Shown here piece after piece: positions 60,201 to 61,447 of a stretch of 64,000 nucleotides of DNA. A program made the translations under genes and the position numbers. The notes under the pieces were generated by a model. The model ran no database searches. It worked only from the letters and a program-made list of their open reading frames with translations, and was not told the DNA's origin. Every line of letters starts with the position of its first letter. The stretch's first letter is position 1. The stretch is from Octopus vulgaris (Eukaryota): assembly GCA_951406725.2 (NCBI GenBank), contig OX597832.1, forward strand, positions 2,976,001-3,040,000. Direction: 5' to 3'.

Positions 60201-61447
60201 AAACTTGCACAAAGAATAAGCACAAGGTAAAATTACTACCTGCTTTTATAGCAAATTTATGCAGGTAGTTTATCCTGTCCCCCTCTGCCTTTTAGTTCAT
60301 ACAATTGAAAAGGCTGCATTATTTATGGGATGACCCTATATCTTCAATCAGACTCTCAGATAAAACTTGGCCTTGTGAATAAAATTAGGTAAACAAAAAC
60401 TGGAAGCCTGTCAGATGTACTTGTTTTAAGGTTGTGTATATTTAAATACCACCATCTGACCCTTAGATGCCTTTAGTAATGGGCACTAAATGTTGTTAAT
60501 CCTTCATCTGTCTGAGAATTAGTTATTGCCTCCTTTGTACTCCTGCCAGGGTTTCTTTTTCCTATTTTCTTAATTAACCTTCAAAGCATTATATGAGTTC
60601 TCTTTCTGACAAAGCCACAGTTAAAAGAAAACTGCTGTTGGGAGCTAGGTTACCTGAGACTTCAGAATGTTTTGAATATTTCTTTATTTGTCTTATTTAT
60701 TTCTCAACACTTTCTTGTCATTGTGGCACTGTTATTTGTGGAGCATGATCTTTTACTCCATAGTTAGTTTCAGTTTTTTGCACTTGATAAAGTACTTGAC
60801 TGCAACTAAAATTACATTTTCTAATGTTTGTCTTGTTGTTCCATTCTAGTTGGTCACTTTTGAGACTCTAGAATGTTCTTATTAATGGTCGCAATCATTT
60901 GATATGGTTGATATTGTTTTTCTGATCTTTGAATGCAAAAAGTTACTTGTAGCATTACCAGACATTTCTTCCTCTGCTTTTTGATGAACAAAAAGAGTTG
61001 GAGGGCATAACATCCATCAGCAGTCATTATTTTAGCTACAAGGTGAAAAGATTTTATATCACTTCCTACTCAGATGTGCTAAGGAACATATAATATCCAT
61101 TTTGTAGTCCTAAACAACTAAAGGGAAAGCCTTATAACCTGGTTTTCCTGTACTGTTTCAGAGATACACACCCAGAAATAAGGTCAATATGTACAACAGA
61201 AATTGGGGTATGGATGCGGAGGTACCCGAATATGTTTTTAGATGATAGCTACTTAAAGTACGTCGGTTGGACATTGCATGACAAGGTAAGTCATGGGTTG
61301 ATGATTTGCTGACATTTTTGCAGGGACACCCAGCCAGAAATAAGAGCAATATGTTCATCAGAGATCGGGGTGTGGATGCGAAAGTACCCTTACATGTTTC
61401 TCGATGATAGCTACTTGAAGTATGTTGGTTGGACATTGCATGACAAG
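11443..61447 (+). CDS. STAG1/2: Cohesin subunit SA / stromalin (STAG1/STAG2 family), 5' portion of a multi-exon gene; continues beyond the window
   Basis: Exons 11443-11786, 15497-15578, 17341-17478, 21922-22095, 23509-23713, 25143-25294, 34219-34292 and 61162-61285 OR 61324-61447 join in frame (phases 2,0,0,0,1,0,2,0). They give STAG-domain and SCD motifs: [83 protein letters not shown]. Confidence 0.95.
13086..14487 (-). mobile_element. Non-autonomous piggyBac element with internal about 174-bp tandem duplication
   Basis: TTAA TSDs (13082-13085, 14488-14491); TIR CCCTTTCGTTAC / GTAACGAAAGGG; duplicated block starting ttccagaccacatcg at 13568 and 13742. Confidence 0.9.
14645..14858 (-). mobile_element. 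tRNA-derived SINE (second family)
   Basis: Reverse complement of the 52101-52315 element (ggccttgtgccaaaatttgaaa tail). Confidence 0.7.
15497..15578 (+). CDS. STAG1/2: SA/STAG coding exon 2 (82 nt)
   Basis: tttctttgtag acceptor, gtaagt donor; [27 protein letters not shown] (acidic SDFE followed by a basic patch, as in SA N-termini). Confidence 0.85.
16190..16710 (+). mobile_element. SINE 3' tail with (GAT)n followed by a full OR-type SINE, embedded in (TA)n
   Basis: ccaacccatgctagcatggaaagcggacgttaaatga(tga)n at about 16190-16295, then a copy of the 4420 family at 16321-16710. Confidence 0.8.
17341..17478 (+). CDS. STAG1/2: SA/STAG coding exon 3 (138 nt)
   Basis: cttgtaatag acceptor, gtaaga donor; SAKRRRGG...[15 protein letters not shown] resembles the STAG 'LFEVVKLGKSAMQ' segment. 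Confidence 0.9.
18276..21889 (-). mobile_element. Degenerate Gypsy-like LTR retrotransposon with both LTRs and a nested piggyBac
   Basis: Direct repeats 18276-18582 and 21553-21889 (TGTT...AACA); PBS-like gtgacgacaagg next to the right LTR; purine tract next to the left LTR on the minus strand; gag remnant QQQQQ...[12 protein letters not shown] (21134-21340). Confidence 0.75.
19720..20915 (-). mobile_element. piggyBac (PGBD4-like DDE) transposase remnant, one end missing
   Basis: ORFs 20229-20636 and 19897-20250: ALDYFLLLF...[43 protein letters not shown]-like ggtaacaaaagggtt near 20901-20915; homologous to 35802-36877. Confidence 0.85.
21922..22095 (+). CDS. STAG1/2: SA/STAG coding exon 4 (174 nt)
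   Basis: tttattttcag acceptor, gtaaat donor; [33 protein letters not shown]...[11 protein letters not shown]. Confidence 0.97.
22990..23335 (+). mobile_element. RTE-like LINE fragment
   Basis: Broken frames with WPCSI and [19 protein letters not shown]. Confidence 0.55.
23509..23713 (+). CDS. STAG1/2: SA/STAG coding exon 5 (205 nt), STAG domain
   Basis: tttttattgcag acceptor, gtaaag donor; [18 protein letters not shown]...[14 protein letters not shown]. Confidence 0.97.
23870..24385 (+). mobile_element. RTE-clade LINE reverse transcriptase fragment
   Basis: YRGIA...[24 protein letters not shown]...VDFKKAFD...MLKILKAY. Confidence 0.8.
25143..25294 (+). CDS. STAG1/2: SA/STAG coding exon 6 (152 nt)
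   Basis: tctttttgtag acceptor, gtattt donor; [32 protein letters not shown]...KRQE. Confidence 0.97.
25556..26892 (-). mobile_element. Short internally deleted Gypsy-like LTR element; SINE tail inserted in the left LTR (25702-25888)
   Basis: Direct repeats about 25556-25944 and 26667-26892 ending ...acaaca; gag remnant [15 protein letters not shown] similar to 21134-21340; tttctccttttt (minus-strand PPT) after the left LTR. Confidence 0.7.
26988..27830 (+). mobile_element. hAT-Charlie-like transposon 5' end, truncated
   Basis: TIR CAGTGGTTCCCAAAC with gggtcgc/gcgaccc subterminal motifs; ATGGATAAATGGTTAAAAAAG (MDKWLKK) start at about 27725. Confidence 0.6.
28865..30150. repeat. Diverged tandem duplication, about 740-bp unit
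   Basis: Shared blocks aatagcagtgatcacatag (about 28895 and 29634), (GA)n-gagact (about 29195 and 29960), ctactctgcagtgaatg (about 29287 and 30020). Confidence 0.7.
32056..32162. repeat. SINE-tail-derived perfect hairpin (31-bp arms, 9-nt loop)
   Basis: 32092-32122 is the exact reverse complement of 32132-32162. Confidence 0.9.
32192..32542 (+). mobile_element. OR-type SINE copy
   Basis: Same body and tail as 4420-4773. Confidence 0.8.
33241..33442. mobile_element. TTAA-flanked about 200-bp MITE (piggyBac-type)
   Basis: ttaacccttt...ggagggttaa; second copy at 56483-56705. Confidence 0.7.
33900..34190 (+). mobile_element. tRNA-headed short retroelement with 5' fold-back and hammerhead-like motif
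   Basis: A box TGGCGTAGTGG (33930-33940), B box GTTCGATTCC (33975-33984), 15-bp inverted duplication of the head, CTGATGA (34070-34076)...stem...GAAA (34098-34101). Confidence 0.65.
34219..34292 (+). CDS. STAG1/2: SA/STAG coding exon 7 (74 nt)
   Basis: aattttccag acceptor, gtatgt donor; [25 protein letters not shown] (phase 2). Confidence 0.97.
34585..35262 (-). mobile_element. Tc1/mariner-superfamily deleted element
   Basis: TA-CAGGGTG...CACCCTG-TA ends; minus-strand [10 protein letters not shown] and WPPNSPDCN transposase motifs. Confidence 0.75.
35802..36877 (+). mobile_element. Internally deleted piggyBac element
   Basis: TTAA TSDs (35798-35801, 36878-36881); TIR CCCTTTCGTTAC; ORF 36071-36463 is the acidic N-terminus plus LDYFFLLF...TAETNRYA of PGBD4-like transposases. 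Confidence 0.92.
37429..37647. mobile_element. mariner-type MITE
   Basis: TIRs gaaggggtgctgaaaagctcctggc / gtcaggaactttccatcaccccttg, TA flanks. Confidence 0.7.
39860..41420 (+). mobile_element. Degenerate RTE-like LINE (RT region)
   Basis: [59 protein letters not shown]; many stops and frameshifts. Confidence 0.8.
42246..43757 (-). mobile_element. Merlin / IS1595(ISXO2)-like DNA transposon, degenerate full-length copy
   Basis: About 90-bp TIRs (ttctgtcttctgcataatggaattaatatgattatgcaaaaa and its reverse complement); minus-strand CxC..CxxC N-terminus, [28 protein letters not shown]...[11 protein letters not shown]. Confidence 0.85.
43821..44264. mobile_element. Tigger/pogo-like MITE
   Basis: TA-CAGGTCGTCATCGACTTACGACC / GGTCATAAGTCGATGACGACCTG-TA. 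Confidence 0.85.
44296..44375 (-). ncRNA. Degenerate type I hammerhead ribozyme motif (second pLTR copy)
   Basis: Minus strand: tttttgggat-CCGATGA-...-GAAAC-ctaag-GTA-gtcccataaa. Confidence 0.5.
45461..45547 (+). ncRNA. Degenerate type I hammerhead ribozyme motif in a Penelope pLTR
   Basis: Stem I ggccaa..tttttgggat / atctcataaattggcc; core (t)TGACGA; stem II ccataaa/tttatgg; GAAA(A)C-ctaag-GTA. Confidence 0.55.
46931..47081. repeat. AT-rich fold-back inverted repeat
   Basis: 46931-46975 is the reverse complement of 47037-47081 (45 bp), with an inner aaacataaaaataaatataatta palindrome. Confidence 0.85.
48507..48940 (+). mobile_element. Two tandem tRNA-derived SINEs (second family)
   Basis: Heads ggtggtgagcttgcagaac / gagctagcagaatcattagc; shared aataagtac body; tgtgccaaaattt-like tail. 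Confidence 0.7.
48960..49560 (+). mobile_element. RTE-clade LINE 3' end
   Basis: [14 protein letters not shown]...[34 protein letters not shown]; (GA)n tail. Confidence 0.85.
52101..52315 (+). mobile_element. tRNA-derived SINE (second family)
   Basis: ggcagtgagctg...gagttcaaattcc (B box)...ggccttgtgccaaaatttt. Confidence 0.75.
54157..54475 (-). mobile_element. OR-type SINE copy
   Basis: Reverse complement of the 4420/16321 family. Confidence 0.8.
56483..56705. mobile_element. TTAA-flanked MITE, same family as 33241-33442
   Basis: ttaaccctttaacatt...aatgctaaagagttaa; shared ctgtcaaatg and tttagaatgacat blocks. Confidence 0.7.
59073..60338 (-). mobile_element. mariner (DD34D) transposon, full-length but pseudogenised
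   Basis: TIRs gggtcatcccataaataatgcag / ctgcattatttatgggatgaccc with TA flanks; [42 protein letters not shown] motifs split over frames. Confidence 0.93.
61162..61285 (+). CDS. STAG1/2: SA/STAG coding exon 8A (124 nt), SCD; alternative copy A
   Basis: ctgtttcag acceptor, gtaagt donor; (R)[41 protein letters not shown]; phase 2 in, phase 0 out. Not in the ORF track. Confidence 0.93.
61324..61447 (+). CDS. STAG1/2: SA/STAG coding exon 8B (124 nt), SCD; alternative copy B
   Basis: atttttgcag acceptor, gtaagt donor; (R)[41 protein letters not shown]; same length and phase as 8A. Confidence 0.93.

Follow-up and report, generated by a model that had tools for sequence, protein, structure and literature searches.

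Two homologous exons of 124 nucleotides (nt) each, 8A and 8B, lie 38 nt apart in the gene for the cohesin subunit SA (STAG) of Octopus vulgaris, within a stretch of 64,000 nt (GenBank assembly GCA_951406725.2, contig OX597832.1, positions 2,976,001 to 3,040,000 of the forward strand) that is referred to here as the window. We consider it likely that they form a tandem-duplicated pair of mutually exclusive exons (MXEs) of the coleoid SA gene and that their exclusivity stems from a steric block based on the spacer between them.

Geometry of the Spacer and the Exon Pair

The 38-nt spacer (61286–61323, + strand) has the form of a GT...AG intron, with a GTAAGT start, a tract of five U, and a CAG end, and it holds both the 8A donor and the 8B acceptor; its sequence and coordinates were exact in the original prediction. 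Candidate branch adenosines at 61301, 61304, and 61312 lie 15, 18, and 26 nt past the first intron base and 22, 19, and 11 nt before the last one, respectively. The first and third had been proposed earlier at 15–26 nt, and these distances are right, while the second had been left unlisted. The best branch motif among the three is that of 61312, with 11 nt to the intron end, a shorter stretch than the usual branch-to-acceptor distance. All spacer adenosines ahead of the acceptor AG occupy intron position 29 or lower; no more than 28 nt separate them from the 8A donor, and for any of them the donor-to-branch distance falls below the ~50 nt that define steric MXEs. Because this ceiling applies to whichever spacer adenosine serves as the branch point, steric exclusion is the best explanation of the arrangement.

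In the proposed mechanism, the spacer would not be excisable, as its removal would require U1 (8A donor) and U2 (8B branch point) to sit within 28 nt of each other. Once exon 7 had been joined to 8A, the 8A donor would have to pass over 8B to exon 9, and a choice of 8B would remove 8A within the intron. Definition of 8A should obstruct the 8B acceptor and vice versa, since the footprints at the 8A donor and the 8B sites would overlap, which would make the spacer the point of competition. Translation disclosed what the other products would encode: direct 8A–8B joining shifts the frame and leads to a stop inside 8B, spacer retention leaves the frame intact (286 and 124 are both 1 modulo 3) but meets a TGA, and double skipping takes out 124 nt, which is not a multiple of 3. 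Nonsense-mediated decay (NMD) would be expected to clear the joined, retained, and double-skipped products. Steric exclusion with NMD as a back-up, as originally proposed, is still the best reading, in that the geometry holds for any spacer adenosine; the block itself is deduced from that geometry. The geometry bars one junction only, and it leaves the choice between the exons and the dominance of 8B unexplained. The default bias towards 8B might, speculatively, be set by weak hairpin masking of the 8A sites or by a regulator.

Comparison of the two exons revealed identical phases (2 at the 5' end, 0 at the 3' end), 83% nucleotide identity with 21 of 124 nt differing, and identity at 35 of 41 residues. 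The ratio of nonsynonymous to synonymous substitution rates (dN/dS) between them is 0.07, and the duplication stands well above chance (blastn E 7e-34). In length, phase, homology, and AG/GT ends, they agree with tandem-homologous MXEs. Their donors both read AAG/GTAAGT and are the sole MAG/GTRAGT sites on the + strand of the 64-kb window; the donor hexamers of exon 7, 8A, and 8B are GTATGT, GTAAGT, and GTAAGT, respectively. Incompatibility between U2- and U12-type sites was rejected as the mechanism, as none of these three donors is of the U12 type, judged by the U12 consensus. The features of the locus are collected in Table 1.

The last 21 exon nt and the first 6 intron nt are identical between the copies (61265–61291 and 61427–61453), while synonymous sites differ at 56% overall. 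These identical 27-nt exon–intron ends possibly reflect a splicing constraint or gene conversion.

Table 1. Features at and around the 8A/8B exon pair, in window positions.
Feature	Position	Strand	Remarks
Exon 8A	61162..61285	+	124 nt; minor form in RNA runs; N-terminal half of stromalin conserved domain; Pfam PF21581 E 1.7e-18
Spacer	61286..61323	+	8A donor, candidate 8B branch adenosines (61301, 61304, 61312), five-U pyrimidine tract, 8B acceptor
Exon 8B	61324..61447	+	124 nt; major form in RNA runs; Pfam PF21581 E 2.8e-18
In-frame TGA in spacer	61310..61312	+	stops translation on retention; same stop ends O. bimaculoides record P0123
Predicted hairpin, 8A donor paired with segment of 61301 and 61304	61285..61310	+	prediction only
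Predicted 9-bp hairpin, 3' arm is the 8A pyrimidine tract	61123..61149	+	prediction only
UGCAUG (RBFOX-type motif)	61275..61280 (8A); 61437..61442 (8B)	+	near 3' end of each exon
Weak internal donor, GT at 61258	61255..61263	+	66-nt intron (61258–61323), in-frame partial-8A+8B, 32 residues longer
Constitutive coding exon 7	34219..34292	+	loose ends of reads entering 8B map to its 3' end
Coding exons 1–8 of cohesin SA/STAG gene	11443..61447	+	tblastn with O. vulgaris/O. sinensis SA-1

RNA Reads over the Exon Pair

Four raw RNA runs (X21–X24) of ~2,000 million letters each, three of which (X22–X24) come from one organism and one study, were placed on 61039–61608. The reads placed numbered 73, 62, and 92 in X22, X23, and X24, respectively (227 in total), and X21 gave two only, both on 8B. 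Among the matches listed, joins of exon 7 to 8B amounted to 27, 36, and 44 in X22, X23, and X24 (107 in total), and joins of 8B to the next exon to 45, 25, and 57 (127 in total). The reads confirmed the 8B acceptor at 61323/61324 and the 8B donor at 61447/61448. From the depth, the 5' part of 8A received ~2, 1, and 0 reads in the same three runs (~3 of 227). Depth was zero over 61229–61304 in all four runs, and the low depth over 61305–61323 is consistent with exon 7 ending in 3 nt that match the acceptor. In the samples seen, 8B is the major form. At 61402 the reads show a synonymous C>T relative to the window; their source is thus another individual or a close species. Fourteen contig runs of possible RNA origin, with shares of 0.50–1.00 (0.53 being expected for both exons and 0.27 for one), were left out of the evidence.

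Each exon was found alone between the same flanking exons, 8B in these reads and 8A in annotated isoforms of four species, with the ~3 reads on its 5' part. No 8A–8B join (61285>61324) was listed for any of the four runs and no read retained the spacer, in data where 8A is nearly absent (~3 of 227) and from which reads may drop silently.

RNA Structure and Motifs

Alternatively, the main control could lie in RNA structure or a regulator: 8A would be kept off by the donor/branch hairpin, the pyrimidine-tract hairpin, or an RBFOX-type protein bound to UGCAUG, and exclusivity would be a consequence; such control may act together with the steric block. We find it improbable in the leading role. 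Two local hairpins were predicted, one in the spacer (−9.3 kcal/mol, z −1.95, with 11 of 200 shuffles as good) and one over the 61110–61165 fold (z −2.36, 3 of 200), both in windows chosen post hoc, after looking, and uncorrected. 8A is minor despite a donor equal to that of 8B and a longer pyrimidine tract, which speaks for additional control. An I-to-V change in the genomic record P0003, described below, would imply A61304G, with the pair kept as U-G, as judged from the protein. The UGCAUG motif falls within the 21-nt run identical in both exons; it occurs in 23 copies on the + strand of the window, and those of 8A and 8B are the sole ones in 60600–61930. However, the motif may just follow the Leu-His-Asp codons. 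The 401-nt region folds no better than its shuffles (z −0.76), and the predicted accessibility of the two donors is equally low (0.009 and 0.007).

Long-range docking/selector pairing was sought in the spacer and flanks, the region ahead of exon 9 lying outside the window, and there it came out no better than chance: shuffles were as good in 30 of 30, 29 of 30, 28 of 30, and 5 of 10 cases for four region pairs.

Limits on Intron Length

A donor-to-branch distance of less than ~50 nt is the accepted steric criterion, and 57 of 629 human MXE clusters (9%) fit it (PMC5740500). In C. elegans, spacers of 14 and 30 nt are described as never seen excised (PMC4165533). The median intron of O. bimaculoides is 1,454 nt (PMC11649378), and the 10th-percentile introns of an oyster and a snail are 113 and 198 nt (PMC13644364). 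We infer that the octopus spliceosome would be under a similar minimum-distance limit. The general statement that less than ~50 nt bars productive binding of U1 and U2 together needs qualification: it stands as an accepted criterion (PMC5740500), but it is not universal, as introns of 22–43 nt are spliced in other animals.

Several observations count against the steric block. Annotated minimum introns go down to 1 nt (PMC11649378) and 30 nt (PMC13644364), introns of a flatworm have a mode at ~32 nt (PMC4040987), myxozoan median introns measure 22–27 nt (PMC13644364), and a human intron of 43 nt is spliced (PMC4463651). A low-tail distribution of octopus intron lengths was not found in the literature. 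At an independent 8A inclusion of 1.4%, zero double-inclusion reads among 107 has a probability of 0.22, and NMD would hide 8A–8B joined products in the reads anyway. Spacer DNA of squid or cuttlefish was not found, the two-exon pattern giving 0 matches in metagenome contigs. Finally, the cuttlefish gene model CAE1269081.1 carries parts of both exons.

Exclusivity could also be the work of NMD alone, with octopus splicing the 38-nt intron and the joined 8A–8B transcripts being made and then lost through the frameshift. We regard this as unlikely, given that 38 nt is far under typical mollusc introns and that animals with routine ultra-short introns have reduced splice motifs (PMC13644364), whereas the donors here have the full consensus. 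The explanation does draw on the exon length of 124 nt, which is not a multiple of 3, and on the stops that joining puts inside 8B, in line with C. elegans, where 14 of 19 non-3n clusters gave rise to more aberrant forms when NMD was lacking (PMC4165533). It is also compatible with the steady-state reads, and introns as short are spliced in some animals.

A Weak Donor inside Exon 8A

Three GT dinucleotides within 8A (61258, 61222, and 61183) would, as donors, yield partial-8A+8B products that stay in frame, with introns of 66, 102, and 141 nt, respectively. The original description of exclusivity as hard-wired was overstated in view of these three sites, the first of which is used in the cuttlefish model. 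By this route exclusivity might be leaky, with the 61258 donor spliced over a 66-nt intron into an in-frame SA protein of 32 additional residues that evades both the steric block and NMD; we give this little credence. The product is in frame by calculation, and CAE1269081.1 (= P0125) has exactly the 61258-type structure. In contrast, this is one gene model only (1 of 23 coleoid records covering the exon), the GT follows from the Lys-Tyr-Val codons and 8B has the same site, no reads fall on 61229–61285, and the insert would duplicate a helix within a HEAT repeat (H223–239 of the model). The U1 duplex is also weak at the internal donor, −3.0 versus −10.6 kcal/mol at the main donor, calculated with the U1 motif as generally known. 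The weak U1 pairing, the conserved codons that entail the GT, and the lack of supporting reads make it more likely that the CAE1269081.1 structure is an artefact of gene prediction.

Distribution of the Two Exon Versions

A and B forms are present in named records of O. vulgaris, O. sinensis, O. bimaculoides, and Sepia (Acanthosepion) pharaonis. In five isoform pairs of equal length, every difference falls within exon 8, six residues in Octopus and five in Sepia, and five of the six A/B differences are common to Octopus and cuttlefish, whose lineages split ~270 million years ago (PMC13652810). Annotation of both forms in three Octopus species and a cuttlefish indicates that the pair is ancient and real. 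Of the records that span the exon, 13 are octopod (8 B and 5 A) and 10 belong to the cuttlefish-type cluster (8 B, 1 A, and 1 hybrid).

The reading of 8A as a dead duplicate or assembly artefact, with a spacer that plays no role, is extremely improbable and largely refuted: very few reads fall on 8A, and 8B is the form in 7 of 7 decapod-type Logan records covering the exon, but frame and splice sites are intact with dN/dS at 0.07, A-specific residues are common to Octopus and cuttlefish, the A form is annotated in four species, and a few reads do fall on its 5' part. An assembly artefact was specifically ruled out by the 21 of 124 nt that differ between the copies and by the presence of both forms in named protein records of four species.

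Outside cephalopods, nine groups (51 records, among them gastropods, Lingula, and a crinoid) have one exon version per group. None of 80 metagenome loci carries a second exon copy (77 with one match and 3 with none); 38 of the 80 have introns at both exon ends (32 of them with flanks of 300 nt or more on either side), and the loci are redundant, with 25 distinct exon sequences. The single version in the non-cephalopod groups and the lack of a second copy in these metagenome loci make the pair look coleoid-specific, in a sampling without Nautilus.

The genomic open reading frame (ORF) P0003 continues across 8A and 8B, which are separated by 13 codons; a second octopus-like genome thus also has a 38-nt spacer. 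A mutated branch point in P0003, suggested by a Trp at the TGA of the window, was rejected because Trp also occurs at other TGA codons of the window; P0003 was probably translated with TGA as Trp. Short-ORF and representative searches yielded no further cephalopod genomic ORF. Two other candidates, P0305 (with an internal repeat that is longer and identical) and P0306 (with one copy), were rejected, as neither is this exon pair.

Position 39 of P0001 and P0002 is His in both copies and Tyr in 19 of 19 other lophotrochozoan proteins, a pattern that fits duplication within cephalopods, as far as the sequences tell. The His codon at this position creates the UGCAUG motif. The cuttlefish-cluster record P0134 starts exactly at the shared 3' end of exon 8, which would fit an assembly break at an 8A/8B bubble. 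In an arthropod-like SA gene (L069-L071:1501-1695), the homologous exon is interrupted by an additional intron of ~72 nt.

Comparison with Known Mutually Exclusive Exons

The closest counterparts are the short-intron MXEs of C. elegans, in which, as in the octopus pair, the whole intervening intron is shorter than ~40 nt and hence no branch position is far enough from the donor. Steric pairs of this kind include egl-15 5B/5A (14 nt), let-2 9/10 (30 nt), and gly-5 9b/9c (34 nt) (PMC4165533). All five steric clusters of C. elegans consist of 3n exons, whereas the octopus exons are 3n+1 in a host with long introns, and the frameshift back-up would thereby be stacked on the steric block.

The pair had originally been likened to alpha-tropomyosin. 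Alpha-tropomyosin 2/3, alpha-actinin, and vertebrate OGDH 4a/4b do share a donor-to-branch distance of less than ~50 nt with octopus, the OGDH branch points lying 25–41 nt from the donor within a predicted hairpin (PMC7969005). In those genes, however, a distant branch point is followed by a long pyrimidine tract (PMC7969005), whereas octopus has a 38-nt spacer with a five-U tract. The candidates here lie 11–22 nt before the last intron base, no farther from the acceptor than an ordinary branch point would, and the distant-branch-point subtype was rejected. The comparison with alpha-tropomyosin was thus not borne out; with its whole intron short, the pair is of the C. elegans short-intron type. 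Drosophila Dscam exons 17.1/17.2 reportedly form a two-exon cluster governed by steric hindrance together with RNA structure, which would resemble the octopus pair in its proposed block and possible local structure. Human clusters classed as potentially steric (PMC5740500) answer to the same distance limit and, as in octopus, have homologous exons inside a folded domain.

STAG1, STAG2, and STAG3 do not occur in 10 supplementary files of PMC5740500, a source for which further supplements may exist, and the available passages of PMC13652810 contain neither STAG1 nor STAG2. No description of an SA/STAG exon pair was found among open literature, titles, and the beginnings of abstracts, subscription papers and bioRxiv supplements being outside the search. 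The mechanism is already known and the 8A/8B isoforms are already in public annotations, so the SA/STAG pair is a further case. As the mechanism is textbook material, the spacer alone teaches little new, although the exon pair offers a clean natural test case for how short a mollusc intron can be. The locus is more telling than the spacer, in that the human homologue of the duplicated exon carries W334 and L329 of the conserved essential surface (CES), a docking site for YxF motifs such as those of SGO1 and CTCF (PMC10279526), and in that two versions of it have been kept in octopods and cuttlefish for ~270 million years.

Host Gene and Protein Context

Tblastn with O. vulgaris and O. sinensis SA-1 placed seven coding exons ahead of the pair, spanning 11443–34292, and the earlier numbering as 8A and 8B is correct when counted from the first coding exon. 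Intron 7 (34293–61161) measures 26.9 kb, and the seven ordinary introns of the gene range from 1.4 to 26.9 kb. Exon 9 was not found within the 64-kb window and presumably lies past its end.

Both exons encode the first half of the stromalin conserved domain, with PF21581 above the cut-off in each case. An AlphaFold model of the 8B form (426 residues) had a predicted local distance difference test (pLDDT) score of 88, and its Foldseek comparison with human SA2 (E 2e-31, template modeling (TM) score 0.89) recovered the SA HEAT fold. Exon 8 aligns with residues 301–339 of human SA2, corresponding to SA2 exon 11 and SA1 exon 10. In the human protein, L329 and W334 line pockets that receive the YxF motif of SGO1 much as CTCF is bound, and the exon that encodes these two residues is part of the CES (PMC10279526). 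The same pocket residues are shared by the homologous human exons, and they are invariant across 8A and 8B. The six A/B differences correspond to SA2 positions 301, 306, 309, 310, 318, and 321 and lie mostly along one helix in the model.

Conservation of the two versions suggests that 8A and 8B SA may differ in function; with L329 and W334 the same in both, altered binding is only a hypothesis. Vertebrates vary this exon region through paralogs (3 differences between SA1 and SA2 over 39 aligned residues), unlike coleoids, which have two exon versions within one SA gene (6 differences over 41). If usage differs by tissue, the pair would give easy access to cohesin variants in a lineage whose chromatin has been reorganised. 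More speculatively, a single coleoid gene might supply two cohesin SA subunits of distinct function, as a splicing counterpart of the vertebrate SA1/SA2 split. The spacer would then act as a binary switch, with U1 (8A donor) and U2 (8B branch point) in competition and with tuning by the hairpin and the RBFOX-type site, and a tissue or stage shift to 8A would alter binding of RAD21, CTCF, WAPL, or shugoshin at the CES repeat and hence loop extrusion in some cell types. We regard this scenario as conceivable, with the odds clearly against it.

Other Observations in the Window

In intron 7, ~50 nt at 52800–52847 (+) are similar to 8A over its 5' half; the stretch contains small indels and lacks an open frame. 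The match scores 37.4 bits versus a maximum of 33.7 in 300 shuffles, and it is either a decayed third exon copy or a chance resemblance. A microsatellite of ~2 kb, (TA)n with interspersed TGCA, occupies 61934–64000, ~490 nt 3' of 8B. Intron 7 also contains a stretch of higher GC content at 59200–60050 (−), which by eye we take to be something like a decayed transposase fragment, presumably with a mariner resemblance.

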